Source: Deltaproteobacteria bacterium (GTDB lineage Bacteria > Myxococcota_C > UBA6777). From it: DNA of 19,989 bases. Below the pieces are notes generated by a model. The model saw only the letters and a list, made by a program, of their open reading frames with translations. It was not told the DNA's origin and ran no database searches. Position numbers and translations under genes: made by a program. This document shows positions 5,181 through 19,989 of the stretch, piece after piece. Location of the stretch: assembly GCA_002731275.1 (NCBI GenBank), contig PCBK01000053.1, positions 100,275-120,263 of the forward strand, read 5' to 3'. How positions within the stretch are numbered: position 1 is the first letter of the stretch; each line of letters opens with the position of its first letter.

Positions 5181-5568
5181 GTACCAAACCTCTTGGAGTG
5201 GGCTTTTGGAAGAGAAGATCTCCTAAAGAGTCTTTGATTTTCGACAAATATACAGTGGTGCGCCTTGAAGTTCAATCGGTCTGGACCTAAGCGGTCGCTG
5301 TTTCTTTTGTCTGATGCGAATAGTGCTTGACTTTTTCACATTCTCATGGCACAACCACCATGAAGTTTGTTGGATCAGCCAAACAAACAACAGAAGACCA
5401 ATTTGGTCACCACAAATGAAATCAGTTCGTTTCCAAAGTGTCTATCCTTCGCCGAGCCTCCTTGAGTGTCTTTGCCTTCGTTATACACCCCACTAAATGA
5501 AAATGATTTTAAATGTGCACAACAGATTTGTGTTGCTGACGTAGATGTCGCAATTTCAGGAGTTTTTG

Positions 5569-5904
5569 ATGAGTAAAAAATTATTTGTTGGTGGTATCAG
5601 CTGGGGAACAAGTGAAGATAAACTGAACGAAGTTTTCGGTCAGTACGGAGAGATCGAAGAAACAAAGATCATCACAGATCGCGAAACTGGTCGTTCACGC
5701 GGTTTTGGTTTTGTCACATTTGTCGATGGTGCTGATGCTGACAATGCAATCCAAGAGCTCAATGGTACCGAACTCGACGGTCGTAACCTCAACGTCAACG
5801 AAGCACGTGAGAGAGCTCCCCGCAGCAACAACAACTACGGTGGCGGCGGCGGTGGCGGCTACAACCGTGGTGGTGGTGGCGGATACAACCGTGGTGGTTG
5901 GTAG
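5569..5904 (+). CDS. RRM-domain glycine-rich RNA-binding protein
   Basis: RNP2 'LFVGGISW' and RNP1 'RGFGFVTF' motifs are present. The C-terminus is NNNYGGGGGGGYNRGGGGGYNRGGW. Start placed at the second ATG (MSKKLFVGG) because CAGGAG lies 6 nt upstream. The track's ATG at 5545 lacks a ribosome-binding site. Confidence 0.85.
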   Translation: MSKKLFVGGISWGTSEDKLNEVFGQYGEIEETKIITDRETGRSRGFGFVTFVDGADADNAIQELNGTELDGRNLNVNEARERAPRSNNNYGGGGGGGYNRGGGGGYNRGGW

Positions 5905-6249: not shown

Positions 6250-6912
6250 ATGAACGCAACCAAAACATCTCTCACCACTCACTGTTTGTCGCTCCTGTGT
6301 GGCTACGTCCTGCTTGTCAGTGTACCATGTGTCGCATTGGCAGATATTGCACCTCCTGTCGGATACATCGAGAAATGTACTGTCAAGAAGCAACAAAAAG
6401 CAGATGAAGTGTGTCGTTGGTGTCGCACCTATTTTCGCAAACCCAAGGCCTGTCAAAAGCGTTTCAAAACGACGGTGTTCAAGAAACGATGTCGCAAAGG
6501 TGGTGCGTCTGTTTGGAGTGAGTTGTGGTGTGCTCCCAAAAAAGCCATCAAACAAAAGGCCGCAACAAAAGAGCAGAAGTCATCGGCAGGAAAGGTCGAT
6601 CATTCCAAGCCTGTCGAGGTTTTGCGTACTGTGTTTCGTGCCGCACGAAGCAACGATACATCGCTTTTGGCCGGATTGTGCGATCCCAAAGGGGAGAATG
6701 ACGGCGACACACGTCGACTTTGTAAAGCGACGAGTAAAAGCCCACGCTGGAAGATGTTTAAGAAGTTCTTTGAGAAAGGGAGCACCAAAGGGACTGTCAA
6801 ATTCGTGAAGGGTAAGGCCTACATTCCATTTATGTTTGGACCCGATGGGAAAAAAGGCGAGACAATGGTGCTGATCAAACGCGATGGTAAGTGGTATTTG
6901 TATAGTTTCTGA
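6250..6912 (+). CDS. Secreted Lys/Cys-rich hypothetical protein
   Basis: AAGGAG 5 nt before the ATG. N-terminal signal-peptide-like segment (LLCGYVLLVSVPCVALA). The mature part is very basic with paired cysteines (CRWCRTYFRKPKACQKRFK...CRKGG...WC). Confidence 0.6.
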   Translation: MNATKTSLTTHCLSLLCGYVLLVSVPCVALADIAPPVGYIEKCTVKKQQKADEVCRWCRTYFRKPKACQKRFKTTVFKKRCRKGGASVWSELWCAPKKAIKQKAATKEQKSSAGKVDHSKPVEVLRTVFRAARSNDTSLLAGLCDPKGENDGDTRRLCKATSKSPRWKMFKKFFEKGSTKGTVKFVKGKAYIPFMFGPDGKKGETMVLIKRDGKWYLYSF

Positions 6913-6933: not shown

Positions 6934-7760
6934 CTATTTGAGTTTTCTTGCGAGATACCAACTTCCTTTGCTTTTTGCGCAAAACCCCGACTTGATCGAT
7001 GTGCTTCCTCTCCACTTGCCACATCTTTTTGACTTGATAAAACGCAGAGGAGGGCGCGCCCAACAGATCGCCTTTCCGTTTTTGACACCGAGGAAGTGAC
7101 GTCTCCCTGGACATGTCGGTGTCGATGGTTTGGGGACGCCTGCGTTCTTGATTTGTCGTGCGAGATACCAGCTTCCTTGATGCTTTGTACAAAAGCCCGC
7201 TTTGATCGAAGTGCTCCCTCTCCAGCGTCCACAATGTGAAGCCGCGATAAAACGCAGCGGCGGTCGCGCCCAACAGATCGCTTTGCCATACTTGACGCCG
7301 AGCAGTGGGCGTCTGCCTGGACACTTCACGCCACCTGTATTGCGAGGCGTTGGCGCGCCTTTTCCTTTCAGCTTTCTGACGAGATACCATCCTCTCATAT
7401 CCTTTGTACAGTGTCCCGAGAGGATGCTCAACGAACCTCTCCATCGTCCACAATGCTTTGTCTGGATGAAGGTCAATGGTGCTTTGGCCAGACACAAAGG
7501 CTTGCCATATTTCTTGCCCATTTGATGACGTCTTCCTGGACAACTCACTCCTGATGAATTGGGGGCTCCTTTTCCTCTGAGTTTGCGGGCGAGATACCAA
7601 CCTCCCATACTTTTCACACAGTAGCCGGCCTTGATCATTCTGTTTCCACCCCAGCTTCTACACTTTCTCGCGAGGATCGTGGGTTTGGGCTTGAGCTGCC
7701 AACAGATCGCGCGTCCATTTTTCAAGCCGAGACGTGTCTGTCTGGGAGGGCACACTGTCG
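6934..7760. repeat. Tandem ~210-bp DNA repeat x4, coding, in the 3' end of the M19-like gene
   Basis: The landmark 'gcgagatacca(a/g/t)c' recurs at 6951, 7160, 7379 and 7589 (periods 209/219/210), with long near-identical stretches between copies. It gives many spurious overlapping ORFs in other frames. Confidence 0.85.
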
Positions 7761-9588
7761 ACGGGAGAAGGCTCCTTGCATAGAGCCCTTTGACTCTCAA
7801 GAGTGTCCCTCTCGGCTTTTTGGCACCAGGGCGTGGGCTGCGATTGTTTGCGTGAATACGTTCCCACATCTGCAAGAAGTTCTCCGCAGAGTGGCGGAGG
7901 TTGTTGATGTCAGCGCCCACACGTTTTAAGTCGAGAAAGAACTCACCGAGCACACCAATGTGTGAGAAGCCGATATTGTCGAAGGTTCGTCCTGTAGCAG
8001 TGTTACGTTGTTTGTGTTTTTGGTAATCCATCTCGCCCAAAAGAGCATTACATGTGAAGGATTTTTCGTCTTTGGCCTGTTGGATTTTTTTGAGCAGGAT
8101 GGGGAGCCCGATCGTAGCAAAGAGTCCAGCCTTGATGCCCAGACTTGCAACACCAAGCGCCGCTGGCGCGAGGAGGAATTTGACGAGAGGCGCGCCGATG
8201 ATGATGCCACCAGTGATCAACATCGGTTTGACTCTTTTGATCACTGCGTGAGCGGGACCATGTTTCCCGATGCACTTGGCGAGATAACTTCCGCCACAGG
8301 CGTATTGTCCAAAACGTGGGACGGTCATCGGGATGAAGCCGTTCAAATCGCTACCAATCCCGACATTTGCGCCCAGACCAAAGTGTGTGTAGTTGTACAT
8401 TTGTGCAAAGGAACGTGTTGATCCGTGACATGTGTTGGCGACCGCTTTGGATGTGTTACGTGGTCTGTAGCCGACCTGCTCCTTGTTTCCTGGACGAAGA
8501 CCGATCATCCCTCCTGTGCGCATGATCAGATCGATCTCTGTGCGACTAATCGCGTTGTGGTGCGCCATAATCTTGCTCTTGGAGGTTGGATCTTCACCGC
8601 TGCGATTCAGTTTGGCGACAGTCGTCTCTTTGATCCATGCGTGGGATGCAAACATCGGATAGTAGCGGTTGCGTCGGACGATATTGTAGGTGTCCCGGAT
8701 GCCTCTCATCGACAGGTGCGCGACATCGATCAGCAAGCGATGCTTCATCATCTCTCTGATCAAGTCTTTTCCCTGCCTTGTCAGCCCGAAGATATTGCGT
8801 CCATGACGATCCGTTCGAAACCCTCGACGGATTCCTTTGATGGCTTTTTTGGCGAAGGCGTCGCCGTATTTTTTCCGGCTCTTCAATGCTTCAAAGATCT
8901 TGAAGGGCATGGCGTGTAATTGTGCGCCACCAAAGCGGTTGTCCATCTCATGGACCGGCTGGATCGAACGCACGCCTGCCTGGACGAGTTTCTTGAGCTG
9001 TGTGCGCCAGGGGCCGTATGTGGGATCCATGAGGTTGGAGACTTCGAGGTGGAGGATGGCCGCGAGTTTTCCCTGACGGATCGCGAGGCGAGCTTCTTGT
9101 GGAGAGCGTACGATCCGGAACCAGGATCGGTGTTTGTGTGCAAAGCGTTTGACCGCGTTGATTTGGTGCCACACAGCGCGCATGTCAGCGCAGCGTTTTG
9201 TGAGCTTTTTATCTTTGTTCCACATCCTGCTCTTGAGTTTGCGGCGCAAAGAGGGTTTGAGGAATCTTCTCGCGACGTCGAGGATGTGACAAAGAGGTTC
9301 GTAGTTGACGATGGAGACCAGCATGATCTTCAAGCCTTCACGGTGGGCTTTTTTGAGCCATGTTGTGTGCATCGCCTGGTGTTGGATATTGCTCCAAATG
9401 GGTGTTCGTCTGGGGCGGTCGTCGTTTCTGCCTTCAAACCACTGTCCATTGTGTGCGAGATGGGCAAAGTGGTGCGCGTGAAGGTCGATATACCCGACGA
9501 CTTTACTTCTCCCTCGTCTGCGTGCGTCTACATCTTGTGGAGGGATGCAGATGAGCGTGAGCATGAATAGTAGGGTCCATTTGTGCAT
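6934..9588 (-). CDS. Secreted peptidase M19-like (membrane/renal dipeptidase family) hydrolase fused to 4 C-terminal ~70-aa Cys/Trp-rich basic repeats
   Basis: Signal peptide MHKWTLLFMLTLICIPP. 'IDLHAHHF' aligns with M19 (V/I)DGHxD. 'HNAISRTEIDLIMRTGGMIGLRPG' aligns with the M19 'RN..D..L.....GGV.G..F' block. 'GIGSDLNGF' aligns with the M19 GxGSDFDG signature. AGGAGA lies 6 nt before the ATG. The C-terminal ~270 aa are four repeats, each CP(G/P)RR..LG.K.GKAICWARPPLRFI...CG.WRGSTSIK.GFC.K..GSWYLARKLKGKGAP. Confidence 0.65.
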   Translation of the reverse strand: MHKWTLLFMLTLICIPPQDVDARRRGRSKVVGYIDLHAHHFAHLAHNGQWFEGRNDDRPRRTPIWSNIQHQAMHTTWLKKAHREGLKIMLVSIVNYEPLCHILDVARRFLKPSLRRKLKSRMWNKDKKLTKRCADMRAVWHQINAVKRFAHKHRSWFRIVRSPQEARLAIRQGKLAAILHLEVSNLMDPTYGPWRTQLKKLVQAGVRSIQPVHEMDNRFGGAQLHAMPFKIFEALKSRKKYGDAFAKKAIKGIRRGFRTDRHGRNIFGLTRQGKDLIREMMKHRLLIDVAHLSMRGIRDTYNIVRRNRYYPMFASHAWIKETTVAKLNRSGEDPTSKSKIMAHHNAISRTEIDLIMRTGGMIGLRPGNKEQVGYRPRNTSKAVANTCHGSTRSFAQMYNYTHFGLGANVGIGSDLNGFIPMTVPRFGQYACGGSYLAKCIGKHGPAHAVIKRVKPMLITGGIIIGAPLVKFLLAPAALGVASLGIKAGLFATIGLPILLKKIQQAKDEKSFTCNALLGEMDYQKHKQRNTATGRTFDNIGFSHIGVLGEFFLDLKRVGADINNLRHSAENFLQMWERIHANNRSPRPGAKKPRGTLLRVKGLYARSLLPSTVCPPRQTRLGLKNGRAICWQLKPKPTILARKCRSWGGNRMIKAGYCVKSMGGWYLARKLRGKGAPNSSGVSCPGRRHQMGKKYGKPLCLAKAPLTFIQTKHCGRWRGSLSILSGHCTKDMRGWYLVRKLKGKGAPTPRNTGGVKCPGRRPLLGVKYGKAICWARPPLRFIAASHCGRWRGSTSIKAGFCTKHQGSWYLARQIKNAGVPKPSTPTCPGRRHFLGVKNGKAICWARPPLRFIKSKRCGKWRGSTSIKSGFCAKSKGSWYLARKLK

Positions 9589-16020: not shown

Positions 16021-16511
16021 CTACGTGAATTCGGAAGGTGATATCTGCGTAGTTATTTCGTCTCTTTCCAAATCCTTCAACAACGACGGGTCCACGACAA
16101 AGGTCTTGCCTCTTTTGATAAGAGCAAATTCCTTGGTTGCGCTTGCGTGGGTGAGAAGATCTCGCAAAGATGCATCTCGTATCTTCTTTGAGTGTGTTGT
16201 TGCTGTGATTATGTTCAGTGACACGGTGTCACCCCAAAAATTCAGGTGTGGTGCTTTCTGGATGGGGATGAGCGCCTGTATGTGGGGTTTTGGGTTGAGG
16301 CAGCGACATTTTTTTGCACCGCAAGGTGTGTCAGGTATTGTTCGATCTCTGGGGTATCCATGGTCGTCGGGTGTCTTTTGTTGTGGAACAGGATGAATCT
16401 CTTGATCCAGCCGACATAGGTCTTTTCTGTTGCACGGGAGTACTGCTTCAGGCGGATGGTAGCTCGGACGCGTTCCAACAACTTTCTTTTGGGAGGTTCG
16501 GGGGAGTTCAT
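16021..16511 (-). pseudogene. intI: Integron-integrase-type tyrosine recombinase (IntI-like), frameshifted and 3'-truncated
   Basis: The intact N-terminal 89 codons (16511..16242) give 'LERVRATIRLKQYSRATEKTYVGWIKRFILFHNKRHPTTMDTPEIEQYLTHLAVQKNVAASTQN'. This matches the IntI SAM-like N-domain pattern (R.I..L.YS.RTEQAYV.WV..FI.FH..RHP.....EVE.FL..LA..R.VS.STH.QAL). The frame breaks right after ASTQN. A second frame (about 16230..16021) reads '...IRDASLRDLL...FALIKRGKTFVVDPSLLKDLE', resembling the box I/'GKG.K.R.VPL' patch region. The HxxR and Tyr-containing C-terminal third is absent in all frames downstream. Confidence 0.65.
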
Positions 16512-16599
16512 GTTTTTTTCTTTTCTGTTGTTTGGTTCTTGAGTGAGTTTTTTGTCTTGTGTATGGGCTTAAGCAACAGATGTGCCAGTTGGGGAGCGG

Positions 16600-16716
16600 T
16601 GGATATCCTGAATTTTTTCCCGATATCACACGATATCGATGGATATCGCGAATTAGTTCAAGATATCGCTTGACAGGTGTGCGATATCTGGACATACTCT
16701 GTCGATATCTGGACAA
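16600..16716. promoter_or_regulatory. Phased array of seven GATATC hexamers (two as the 13-bp direct repeat CGATATCTGGACA) upstream of intI, candidate attI/recombinase or regulator binding region. It contains a sigma70-like TTGACA-17-CATACT facing the cassettes
   Basis: GATATC starts at 16602, 16622, 16632, 16642, 16662, 16683 and 16704, with spacings 20, 10, 10, 20, 21 and 21 bp, about one or two helical turns. 'cgatatctggaca' occurs at 16682-94 and 16703-15. TTGACA at 16670-75, 17-nt spacer, CATACT at 16693-98 on the + strand. Confidence 0.5.
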
Positions 16717-16807
16717 CCATCGTGGATGTCACCTAAAAAGCGGACAAACATTGAATGAGTTCAATAGAATAACAAGTTAATTGTTTTATTGAAATTCAGG
16801 GTTTTAT

Positions 16808-16840
16808 TACTTGCATCAAAAAAAAAACGACATCAAAGTC
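16808..16840. terminator. Weak bidirectional hairpin (A10-ACGAC-atcaaa-GTCGT-ATTTTCTT) in the AT-rich leader
   Basis: 5-bp stem flanked by an A-run upstream and a T-run downstream. Could insulate the cassettes from intI-region transcription. The stem is short. Confidence 0.2.
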
Positions 16841-16977
16841 GTATTTTCTTCCATCGGAAAGTTGAAAAGCATGTAAATCTACCTTATATTTTTTTGCTTT
16901 ATAGGTAAAAATATAAAGGTCTACCCAAGGGAAAATTAGCGCAGGCTTACCATATCATCTTTGCTCCTAATAATATC

Positions 16978-17006
16978 TTGACAACAAAACTATATTCGGA
17001 TATTGT
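16978..17006 (+). promoter_or_regulatory. sigma70-like promoter for the ATPase gene
   Basis: TTGACA (16978-83), 17-nt spacer, TATTGT (17001-06). AAGGAGA sits at 17021-27, 6 nt before the ATG at 17034. Confidence 0.35.
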
Positions 17007-17033
17007 TGTGAGTGAAAAAAAAGGAGAACTTTT

Positions 17034-18317
17034 ATGTTCAATCCAGAAAACGGTTTTACTTCAGATGTAATAAAAAGTCCTGACAGGTTTGTAGGAAGAA
17101 CGAATCTTGTGATGAGTTGTCTTCGTGTTCTAAATTCAGAACATAGCCTGATCGTTATTTATGGCAAAAGAGGAGTAGGTAAATCTTCTCTACTTCGCCA
17201 AATCCAGCAAATTGCTACGGGAGATTTCACTCTCCCGAAAAAAATGAGTTTACAATACCTGATATCAGAAAAACAGAGGAAGTATTTAACGGTTTACTAT
17301 CAATGCGATTCATTAATTGATGGTTGTGATGAACTGCTACTAAGGTTAGTAAATGATCAAGATGGAGAAGATGGCCTTCTTCGACTCGTTCCGGATGATG
17401 GTAAAGAATTAGTAGAGTTTTCGAGAGCAAAAAGCGTAAATGCAGGTGCTGATCTAAAAATAGTAAAGTGGGGGACTCAGGGAGTTGAAACATCAAGGTA
17501 TGCAAGGACTGTACCTGGTGACGTTGTCCAAACATTTAGAAATTTTTTGAATTCTATTATCACACACCAGTTAAATAAGTATGGGAAAGACGGGATTCTT
17601 ATACTTATCGACGAGTTTGATGTGATTAAAAACAAACATGGAATAGGGTCATTGATAAAGTCCTTAACTTCAGACAAAATAAAATTTGCTATATGTGGTA
17701 TTGCAGATGATGTAAGTTCTCTTGTCGAGGATCATCACTCTGTCGAAAGGTTACTTGAAGAAGGTTCAATGCCTGTTCTCCAAATGCCACATAGTGAATG
17801 TTTGCAAATTTTAAACAGAGCAGAGGAACTTTTTGACAACGAAATTAAATTTGTAGGAGAGGCAAAGGAGAAAATATCTCAACTGAGTTCAGGTTACCCT
17901 TATCTTGTTCAACTGTTTGGTAAAGCGTGCATTCATGAATTAAATAAATATGGAAAAAGTGAGGTCGATGAGTTCGTATTGAATGCCGTACTTAATGCTA
18001 TAAAAAAAGGTGAAGCATTTCCCAGTCTTGAAACTAAATATCAAAGAGCCATTGGGAATTCAGAACAACGACAACTTTTGCTGCATCTATTGTCTGAAGA
18101 AGAAGATAATAGGGAGCAACAAGATTTGGAAATGGGATTGGTCTATTTGAAAAACGTTCGAAAAGAGGCTGTAGGTTTAGAAATAGAGAATATGGACCAA
18201 ATCATCCCAAGATTGGTAGATAAAAAATATGGACCAGTTTTAAGTAAAATTCGAAAAGGTGTATACGAATTCGTTGATCCTGTATTCAGAATATATGTGA
18301 ACCTCAGGGAATTGTAA
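17034..18317 (+). CDS. P-loop NTPase of the AAA+/ATPase_2 (PF01637-like, 'archaeal-type' orphan ATPase) class
   Basis: 'FVGRTNLVMSCLRVLNSEHSLIVIYGKRGVGKSSLL' matches the ATPase_2 N-terminal signature (F.gR..el..L.......vI.G.RR.GKTsLl), including Walker A. Walker B 'ILILIDEFD'. A sensor-like 'SGYPYLVQLFG' corresponds to the family's GG.PyyLq motif. About 38% GC with a strong ribosome-binding site. Confidence 0.75.
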   Translation: MFNPENGFTSDVIKSPDRFVGRTNLVMSCLRVLNSEHSLIVIYGKRGVGKSSLLRQIQQIATGDFTLPKKMSLQYLISEKQRKYLTVYYQCDSLIDGCDELLLRLVNDQDGEDGLLRLVPDDGKELVEFSRAKSVNAGADLKIVKWGTQGVETSRYARTVPGDVVQTFRNFLNSIITHQLNKYGKDGILILIDEFDVIKNKHGIGSLIKSLTSDKIKFAICGIADDVSSLVEDHHSVERLLEEGSMPVLQMPHSECLQILNRAEELFDNEIKFVGEAKEKISQLSSGYPYLVQLFGKACIHELNKYGKSEVDEFVLNAVLNAIKKGEAFPSLETKYQRAIGNSEQRQLLLHLLSEEEDNREQQDLEMGLVYLKNVRKEAVGLEIENMDQIIPRLVDKKYGPVLSKIRKGVYEFVDPVFRIYVNLREL

Positions 18318-18470
18318 GAATCAAGGAGCAACTTAGCGATGAACAAGTCGTTGGAGCGAACATGCCAGGGCACATTCGGTAAAGTCGTTTTCCTACACGA
18401 TATGAAGAGATCCTCAACTACACAAAGAGCCCTGTCATATGCGCTCAACTCAGGCGTTATGTTCTGAAGG
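18318..18470. repeat. attC-like cassette-boundary element, copy A (complete). The first ~75 bp are shared with copy B and the whole is a ~127-bp imperfect nested palindrome
   Basis: 18334-18393 is about 83% identical to 19750-19809, and both contain GTTGGAGCGAACATG. The outer inverted repeat is TGAACAAGTCGTTGGAGCG (18340-58) against CGCTCAACTCAGGCGTTATGTTCTG (18442-66). The inner inverted repeat is GAACATGCCAGGGC (18358-71) against GCCCTGTCATATGC (18429-42), 11/14 complementary. It lies immediately 3' of the ATPase stop. Confidence 0.45.
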
Positions 18471-18760
18471 AGAAAGAGTAAACGCCTGACATAGGCGCAA
18501 TATCAGCAGGAATTAGCTCAATAAAGGTTGCAATAGAAATTGCAAAAGACCTTAAAAATGCAACATCATCTCTTAAAGACGCTGAGGTTAAGCTGAAAAT
18601 AGCTGAGTTATTGGAAGCTATGTCTGAAGTAAAGTCGGCAAACACCAACTCCCTTAACATATTTAATGATAAATTTGTCACAGAGAGAGACTCTCTTAGA
18701 GAAAATAATCTACAAAGATATGGTTTAATGGTTTTTATCTAGAGCGTGTCGAAATTTGGC

Positions 18761-18789
18761 TTGAACTGTAATGCTTACCGTGATATAGG
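18761..18789 (+). promoter_or_regulatory. sigma70-like promoter with extended -10 for the EcsC-family gene
   Basis: TTGAAC (18761-66), 17-nt spacer, then TGaTATAGG (TG at 18781-82, -10 at 18784-89). AGGAGG at 18805-10, ATG at 18820. Confidence 0.4.
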
Positions 18790-18819
18790 ATGGAAAAATA
18801 ATATAGGAGGACCTGTGAA

Positions 18820-19638
18820 ATGAGTACTGCACTTTCACAATATGAGAGAACGGCATTGCAAGAGATCAATGATTGGAAAAGTCCTGAAGAGCAAACTTGG
18901 TTTGGTGCAATTGCCAATGCTGTGTCTTATCCTTTCGATTTGGCAGGAGATGCAGTCATGTCAATTCCAGGAGCACAGACTGCTGTAGAAAAAACTGTGG
19001 GAGGACTCATCTCTCTGCTTAATGATGCTGCACAGTGGAGTATTCCTGCAAACTCAGCTGTCGAATATTACAAAGGAAAAAAGCGCTCTGTAAACAATCG
19101 CAAAGATATTTTCAAACTTGATTTGGAAGAAATAGATGAAGCTATATCTTATACCGGAGCAAAGTACAGGGCTCTTGCTGCAGCGGAGGGGGCAGGAGCT
19201 GGGGCAGTAGGAGTTATTGGTATCCCCGTTGATATTGTAGCACTGGTTGCGATGAATCTGAGAGCGATAGGTGAATATGGAACCTACTGTGGATTTGATA
19301 TGTCAAAAGAACATGAGCGCCTCTTTGCAATGAGAATACTTGGAGTAAGTTCGAGCCCAACTGATGCTGCAAAACAGGTTGCCTTAGCTCAACTTACAAA
19401 AATAGGGAAAGAAGTTGCAAAAAAACAAACTTGGAAGCAATTGGAAAGGCATGGCTTTGTTCGATTAATTCAAGAGATTGCAAAATCACTAGGAATTCGA
19501 CTGACAAAAGCAAAGCTTGCTCAAATCTTACCAGGTGTTGGAGCCGTAATTGGAGGTGGATTCAACGCGTATTATACAGGAAAAACATGTACAACTGCAT
19601 ACTATATGTACAGGGAAAGATTTCTTTTGGAAAAGTAG
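18820..19638 (+). CDS. EcsC-family protein (PF12787-like)
   Basis: N-terminal 'LSQYERTALQEINDWKSPE' matches the EcsC 'E..AL.EI..W' pattern. There is a central Gly/Ala-rich 'AAAEGAGAGAVGVIGIPVDIVALVA' segment. The C-terminal 'LPGVGAVIGGGFNAYYTGKTCTTAYYMYRERF' matches the family's conserved 'IP.IGA.IGGG.N...T.......A...FR' tail. Identification is from memory of the family, not a search. Confidence 0.6.
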   Translation: MSTALSQYERTALQEINDWKSPEEQTWFGAIANAVSYPFDLAGDAVMSIPGAQTAVEKTVGGLISLLNDAAQWSIPANSAVEYYKGKKRSVNNRKDIFKLDLEEIDEAISYTGAKYRALAAAEGAGAGAVGVIGIPVDIVALVAMNLRAIGEYGTYCGFDMSKEHERLFAMRILGVSSSPTDAAKQVALAQLTKIGKEVAKKQTWKQLERHGFVRLIQEIAKSLGIRLTKAKLAQILPGVGAVIGGGFNAYYTGKTCTTAYYMYRERFLLEK

Positions 19639-19732
19639 AAAGAGAGTGTTCTTGATTACAAGTGAGAGATTTTGGATGTCACTACTCCTCTTTCACCATG
19701 AAAAGAATGAAAAGATAAATCGATTTGTAAGC

Positions 19733-19809
19733 AATACAATAAAGCAATTAAGCGGTGAACAAATCGTTGGAGCGAACATGTCAGGGCATAGTCGACAAAC
19801 CCATTTTCC
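19733..19809. repeat. attC-like cassette-boundary element, copy B, 3'-truncated by IS insertion
   Basis: Aligns with the 5' ~75 bp of copy A through '...cattttcc', then abruptly becomes GTAACCGGGCGAGC, the IS66-type terminal repeat. It is the only reason the 87-aa ORF 19550..19813 stays open. Confidence 0.45.
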
Positions 19810-19989
19810 GTAACCGGGCGAGCTAGAACGTCTTGAAAAGGAAATGAAAAGAAAAGAAGCAAGCTCCTTCAAAATATCAAACCGAAGGAGAAAAAATATG
19901 GCTTACAATCGTTCCGAACACTGGCGACCAATCATCGAGCAATTCGAAGTCTCTGGCCTTACGCAAAGTGACTTCGCCGAGCAACACGA
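19810..19989 (+). mobile_element. IS66-family insertion sequence, left end (IRL plus start of tnpA). It continues beyond the window
   Basis: GTAACCGGGCGAGC at 19810 resembles the IS66-family 'GTAAGCG...' terminal inverted repeat. 88 bp later, AAGGAG with a 7-nt spacer precedes an ATG whose product 'MAYNRSEHWRPIIEQFEVSGLTQSDFAEQH...' fits the IS66 TnpA accessory-protein N-terminus (W..II..F..SGL.Q..F....GI). Confidence 0.5.
19898..19989 (+). CDS. tnpA: IS66-family TnpA (orfA) N-terminal 30 codons, partial
   Basis: See the mobile-element entry above. Helix-turn-helix-like 'SGLTQSDFAEQH' segment. The ORF runs off the window end. Confidence 0.45.
   Translation, partial: MAYNRSEHWRPIIEQFEVSGLTQSDFAEQH

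Follow-up and report, generated by a model that had tools for sequence, protein, structure and literature searches.

The window, by which we mean the whole stretch of 19,989 nucleotides analyzed here, carries on its reverse strand an open reading frame for an 884-aa protein, the longest over the interval flagged by the first-pass annotation. The other reading frames that overlap this interval were rejected as shadow frames without support. The protein, which comes from an uncultured marine myxobacterium, has an exact match in NCBI HAA55576.1 (P0001 in our comparisons), which is filed as a "hypothetical protein" from a Myxococcales MAG. Its N-terminus looks like a Sec signal peptide, to judge by the sequence, and the N-termini of the homologues P0003, P0004 and P0007 are comparable. 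The parts of the gene and the neighboring features are collected in Table 1.

Table 1. Features of the gene for the 884-aa protein and of its surroundings (positions in the window; aa, residues of the encoded protein).
Feature	Position	Strand	Remarks
RRM_1 protein gene	5545-5904	+
Tandem repeat in RRM_1 protein gene	5844-5898		24-bp unit
Convergent neighbor	6250-6912	+	220 aa
Whole gene, putatively secreted M19-like metallohydrolase with four-module C-terminal tail	6934-9588	-	884-aa ORF
Stop codon of the 884-aa ORF	6934-6936	-
Module R4, core	6937-7113	-	aa 826-884; net charge +17; protein end ...ARKLK-COOH, as in single-copy homologues
Linker 3	7114-7146	-	NAGVPKPSTPT
Module R3, core	7147-7323	-	aa 756-814; net charge +12; copy used for the AlphaFold2 model
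Linker 2	7324-7365	-	GKGAPTPRNTGGVK
Module R2, core	7366-7542	-	aa 683-741; net charge +13
Linker 1	7543-7575	-	GKGAPNSSGVS
Module R1, core	7576-7752	-	aa 613-671; net charge +15
M19-type catalytic domain	7819-9501	-	aa ~30-590; Pfam PF01244, invariant residues, DPEP1 alignment, Foldseek
Hydrophobic insertion, ~45 aa	8089-8223	-	aa ~456-500; in a variable loop of the catalytic domain
Signal-peptide-like N-terminus	9520-9588	-	aa 1-23, MHKWTLLFMLTLICIPPQDVDA followed by RRR; read by eye from the sequence, putative cleavage site
Segment of lowered G+C	~16500-19989
STAND/AAA_16-type ATPase	17034-18317
EcsC-family protein	18820-19638

The gene converges with a neighbor whose reading frame ends 21 bp from its stop codon. 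The product of this neighbor exhibits a signal-peptide-like N-terminus, 11 Cys and a net charge of +31; it gave no Pfam or NCBIfam match, holds no copy of the module described below, and is not conserved beside homologues of the 884-aa protein. The window also encodes a bacterial RRM_1 RNA-binding protein (E = 1.6e-24) with a Gly/Tyr/Asn/Arg-rich C-terminal tail that is encoded by the short tandem repeat. In the last part of the window the G+C content drops from ~0.50 to 0.35-0.42, and this segment, with its STAND/AAA_16-type ATPase and EcsC-family genes, may be an acquired island.

No conserved gene neighborhood was found around eight homologous loci, and hence no hint to the substrate from that side. 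The only neighbor shared in any locus comparison was a ~200-aa reading frame that adjoins the M19-like gene in two Leptospirales genomes (L003, 5257-5925; L006, 6108-6725; 33% identity).

The M19-like catalytic domain

The Pfam profile Peptidase_M19 (PF01244) matched residues 34-324 with 76.2 bits against a cutoff of 26 (E = 3.4e-21), with the alignment covering profile positions 9-210 of 319 only. The putative metal-binding and catalytic residues are H37, H39, E182, H213, H291, H316 and D414. An alignment of 64 family sequences shows no variation at H213, H291, H316, E182 and D414 and next to none at H37 and H39. With phmmer, E182 and H291 align to a Glu and a His ligand (Glu125 and His198) of human renal dipeptidase DPEP1, whose binuclear-zinc ligands we take to be His20/Asp22, Glu125, His198 and His219.

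The general fold was supported by the full-length AlphaFold2 model, with a pLDDT above 90 across most of the barrel. When this model was compared with solved structures by Foldseek, all of the top 20 matches were M19 dipeptidases, among them GliJ, DPEP1, Sco3058 and PvdM (E from 4e-11 to 3e-8, TM for the target ~0.6). The protein shares with peptidase family M19 a PF01244 score above the cutoff, a barrel fold at E ~1e-10 and conserved Glu and His residues as putative ligands, a likeness that is confined to the catalytic domain. On the other hand, sequence identity to the M19 structures is merely 11-17%, and the domain is ~200 aa longer than in M19 peptidases because of insertions, one of them hydrophobic and unique to the 884-aa protein. 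The N-terminal metal motif also differs, being H-x-H (DLHAH) in place of what is presumably H-x-D in DPEP1.

Judged by its sequence, the catalytic domain appears intact and M19-like, and "secreted M19-like hydrolase" is a reasonable description of the protein. The first-pass annotation had gone one step further and called it a secreted M19-like dipeptidase. The M19-like domain and the signal-peptide-like start are in keeping with the first part of that name, whereas the label "dipeptidase" is not established, owing to the H-x-H motif and the large insertions.

The hydrophobic insertion (PMLITGGIIIGAPLVKFLLAPAALGVASLGIKAGLFATIGLPILL) was found only in the 884-aa protein and its alleles, and is missing from the closest homologues P0002, P0003, P0004, P0007 and P0014. 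In the AlphaFold2 model it forms helices, with low confidence at residues 460-482. It could be a membrane-inserting hairpin, albeit an odd element in a secreted enzyme.

The whole protein is strongly basic, with a net charge of +128 and a pI of ~11, and the catalytic domain alone has a pI of 10.8. Typical members of the M19-like family are acidic (P0014, for example, at -57). The clade comprising P0001-P0004 ranges from +74 to +128, and its members other than the 884-aa protein itself (P0002-P0004) lie at +74 to +90.

Anatomy and predicted fold of the repeat module

Four tandem Cys-rich copies had been placed after a catalytic domain by the first-pass annotation, and this arrangement holds, position included: the last 272 aa of the reading frame at 6934-9588 consist of four tandem modules, each with a 59-aa core, joined by Gly/Pro/Ser-rich linkers of 11-14 aa. 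Across R1-R4, 20 columns are invariant, the four Cys among them. Each core has, as was also proposed, four Cys and a net positive charge, with 12-17 Lys and Arg against 0-1 Asp and Glu, and the charge of the four-module array adds up to +57. Three Trp had been described as conserved as well, but R2 has only two. When 24 modules from eight proteins were aligned the invariant positions were reduced to the four Cys and two Gly, within the consensus C-P-x14-16-C-x7-I-x4-C-x4-G-x6-G-[YF]-C-x4-G-x-[WY]-[YF]-x-[AV]-[RW]-[KR]-L-K.

The copies had further been described as near-identical in DNA and the array as a recent expansion. Pairwise DNA identity among R1-R4 is 51-75%, and falls to 39-58% at third codon positions. 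Tandem Repeats Finder picked up R3 and R4 only, at 77%, and for this youngest pair the identities at codon positions 1, 2 and 3 are 0.76, 0.90 and 0.58. These values speak for old duplications under purifying selection and against a recent expansion. The closest relatives of each copy in the window are the other copies in the window, followed by the modules of P0002 and P0003, and it follows that the four-fold array arose within the lineage of the 884-aa protein itself.

The structure of one module was modeled with AlphaFold2 using R3 and the 24-sequence alignment, with a mean pLDDT of 94.6, a pTM of 0.75 and all five models above 92. The model consists of strands at residues 7-11 and 14-18, a helix at 28-31, and strands at 44-48 and 52-58. 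From this single model, built on 24 sequences only, the module is predicted to fold as a beta-hairpin, a short helix and a second beta-hairpin, with a conserved Gly at the turn of both hairpins. Each module probably has two disulfides, for which a C1-C2 and C3-C4 pairing is our guess. In the full-length AlphaFold2 model the repeats have low pLDDT, and the mutual arrangement of the modules can therefore not be stated.

No known family was recovered. A Pfam scan of the 278-aa tail gave no match at E <= 1, and individual scans of the 24 modules at E <= 10 produced seven one-off noise matches only. The NCBIfam scan returned nothing significant (best E = 0.27), a profile search of PDB sequences had no match at E <= 10, and a literature search brought up nothing relevant. 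Word-indexed homologue searches, whether started from the tail by itself or from the 24-module alignment, also gave no matches; this result is discounted because they missed the query's own entry P0001 as well. A Foldseek comparison of the module model with 350,542 chains gave a best E of 2.5 and a TM of 0.34, and no significant superposition was seen on solved small disulfide-rich folds (Sushi/CCP, FN1, FN2/kringle, PAN/apple, EGF-like and others), a negative result that applies to solved structures only and to a class of small domains that score low. As far as these tools reach, the module is an uncatalogued domain family with no solved-fold match, in agreement with the first-pass annotation, which could place it in no known fold.

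Occurrence of the module in other proteins

The four-copy profile was searched against 1.84 billion representative proteins, and of the 11 matches seven were judged true. The E values of 5e-16 to 4e-11 in unrelated proteins show that the repeat is no chance resemblance. The matches P0073 and P0075-P0077 were rejected as spurious; they are LRR-like and Bacteroidota "CWSTSPNPT...YYVRAY" repeats, in which per-domain scores of ~6 bits or less had been summed.

One module copy ends each of the two nearest homologues, P0002 and P0003 (52% identity to the 884-aa protein in the enzyme part), and the Leptospirales M19-like proteins P0007 and P0008 likewise have a single C-terminal copy. Genome collections were scanned as well, with a degenerate DNA pattern that encodes G[FY]C-x6-WY-x-[AV]-R-x-[LIV]-K. 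In species-representative genomes it gave three true loci, all in Leptospirales, and two chance matches, whereas in JGI metagenomes and viral contigs all ten matches were due to chance and contained in-frame stops. The Leptospirales genomes L004, L006 and L008, which comprise a Leptospiraceae MAG, a Leptonemataceae chromosome and a Spirochaetia MAG, each have a single copy at the C-terminus of an M19-like protein. A scan of the rest of the window revealed no copy outside the tail.

Larger M19-like proteins (P0070, P0072 and P0074) have four to six copies in tandem. In this group the modules most alike are those at corresponding positions of different proteins, which makes their array an old one. 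In P0072 (L012, residues ~1215-1325) and P0074 (L009, residues ~1055-1163) a further Cys-rich tail follows the array, made of short hairpin-like "CPxGY...C" units. These units are similar to the N-terminal half of the module and may be a hint to its origin.

The first-pass annotation had recommended that the repeat be searched alone for the catalytic domains it decorates. The partners turned out to be M19-like proteins, and in addition a second architecture: P0086, with Laminin_G_3 and RTX repeats, has one copy at its end. This copy is 57-64% identical to the Leptospirales modules, which indicates domain shuffling. The module domain exists as a unit, recurs in other proteins and is maintained by purifying selection, and on these sequence comparisons it is a real, autonomous and portable accessory domain.

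The homologues of the module in P0072 are neutral to acidic. That Trp richness and basic charge, both of which had been taken as defining features, characterize the domain as such is not supported. The strong positive charge belongs to the clade of the 884-aa protein, its catalytic domain included, and is not intrinsic to the module.

The role of the tail and its likeness to known systems

What stands at the C-terminus varies across the wider M19-like family, which is mostly from Myxococcota. In most members it is a Dickkopf_N-like Cys-rich module, and other occupants of this slot are F5_F8_type_C_2 (galactose-binding-like), dockerin and TSP3 repeats; a ricin-type lectin sits N-terminally. Such variation is what accessory modules for binding or targeting typically show, and it suggests a binding-type role for the module. 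The sole member of the P0001-P0004 clade that has no module is P0004, and it carries a Lys-rich tail (KKGVKKVKKGVKKGAKKVKK...) in the same position, suggesting that the job of the tail in this clade is cationic attachment. Since the P0072 modules are neutral to acidic, charge-based binding cannot be the ancestral function of the domain.

The reading we favor, with moderate confidence, is that the tail of the 884-aa protein consists of four independently folding copies of an uncatalogued extracytoplasmic domain, which serve as a multivalent polycationic tail for binding or anchoring. The Gly/Pro/Ser linkers would join four modules of +12 to +17 into a flexible chain, and this chain would hold a binuclear-metal M19-type hydrolase on an anionic surface or polymer. 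The cell envelope, a peptidoglycan-associated polymer, an acidic polysaccharide and DNA are candidate targets. Here we infer that the protein is exported, that the modules are disulfide-bonded and that they bind, and also what kind of ligand they would bind. A small, disulfide-stabilized extracellular module that binds and targets the peptidase had been suggested by the first-pass annotation; its occurrence on a second architecture adds that it is a portable accessory domain, while binding or targeting is our best inference only.

A bolder version, which we put forward tentatively and regard as possible but doubtful, is that the module has a new fold and is the first of a new class of bacterial domains that bind surfaces, glycans or polyanions and are shuffled among secreted proteins of Myxococcota, Leptospirales and others. 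In the present protein the four-fold array of +57 would then make an M19-type hydrolase surface-sticking and possibly prey-directed.

The module could instead be a C-terminal signal for sorting, secretion or attachment, comparable to T9SS CTDs and CTERM tags, and bind no ligand. In every single-copy protein it stands at the extreme C-terminus and ends in ...AR[KE][LI][KQ]-COOH, and it is found on two unrelated types of cargo, the M19-like enzymes and the LamG plus RTX protein. We nevertheless consider this unlikely, given that sorting signals are single-copy and the module occurs four times here and four to six times elsewhere, and that the arrays of P0072 and P0074 are not terminal, being followed by a Cys-rich region of ~110 aa. 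Moreover, the module has no C-terminal hydrophobic helix, no known sorting motif and no match to the NCBIfam sorting domains (MYXO-CTERM, PEP-CTERM, T9SS CTD), and most paralogues lack it and have other modules in its place.

Somewhat less probable still is that the cationic Cys-rich units are themselves effectors, defensin-like and acting by permeabilizing envelopes or neutralizing polyanions, possibly after release by proteolysis of the linkers, in keeping with a predatory lifestyle. The size of the unit (~59 aa with four Cys and a net charge of +12 to +17), the bead-like array with its Gly/Pro/Ser-rich linkers and a host within Myxococcota would suit such a role, but homologous modules elsewhere are neutral or acidic, and the usual state is one copy fused to an enzyme. 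The linkers have no obvious processing sites, and antimicrobial-peptide families were matched at noise level only (NCBIfam E = 0.58; single stray Pfam matches).

At least four independent assemblies contain the protein, with a length of 884 or 876 aa and with four copies in every case. It was recovered from two MAG lineages at NCBI (in one case on a 181-kb contig), as a gene from Tara Oceans surface water, and from an ENA assembly; the last of these is a separate allele, set apart by 17 substitutions, of which six fall within the repeats. No copy-number variation, which had been thought likely, was seen among these assemblies. An origin of the tract as an artefact of assembly, or as a very recent and unstable expansion, can be dismissed with near certainty: no evidence for it was found, R1-R4 differ by 25-49% in DNA, which makes mis-collapse or mis-expansion impossible, and the same four-copy architecture appears in all of the at least four assemblies, including the 181-kb contig, the Tara Oceans gene and the 17-substitution allele.

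The module is thus a candidate new domain family with a familiar general role, that of an accessory module on a secreted enzyme, and offers no conceptual surprise; nor does it bear on a long-standing open question. It is rare, with ~7 true clusters among 1.84 billion representative proteins, yet present in at least two phyla and two protein architectures. Defining the family, which merits a Pfam entry, would allow "hypothetical" tails to be annotated and would provide a small disulfide scaffold for structural study. Its ligand, once found, would indicate the site of action of the secreted M19-like hydrolases of this clade in Myxococcota and Leptospirales, which is still poorly understood.

Three known systems invite comparison with a binding or anchoring tail of this kind. 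Accessory modules on secreted bacterial hydrolases, such as F5/8-type-C, ricin-B lectin and dockerin, are likewise small, autonomous, sometimes in tandem and shuffled between enzymes, and paralogous M19-like proteins bear such modules in the same slot; the present module, however, has no sequence or fold similarity to them, is much smaller (59 aa) and depends on Cys. The Dickkopf_N-like domain (PF04706) of Myxococcota "membrane dipeptidase" proteins has the same C-terminal position on the same enzyme family, and is also Cys-rich and at times repeated (P0005, P0006, P0033 and P0048). It differs in Cys pattern and composition (CRFDAECxSGxCxGAGxCG), and its profile found no match in the module, whereas it was found in the paralogues P0005 and P0033. 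Finally, polybasic C-terminal tails for electrostatic attachment to surfaces have a counterpart in the nearest module-less paralogue, P0004, with its Lys-rich end. In the 884-aa protein, in contrast, the charge is predicted to be carried by folded, Cys-stabilized domains rather than by a disordered tail.
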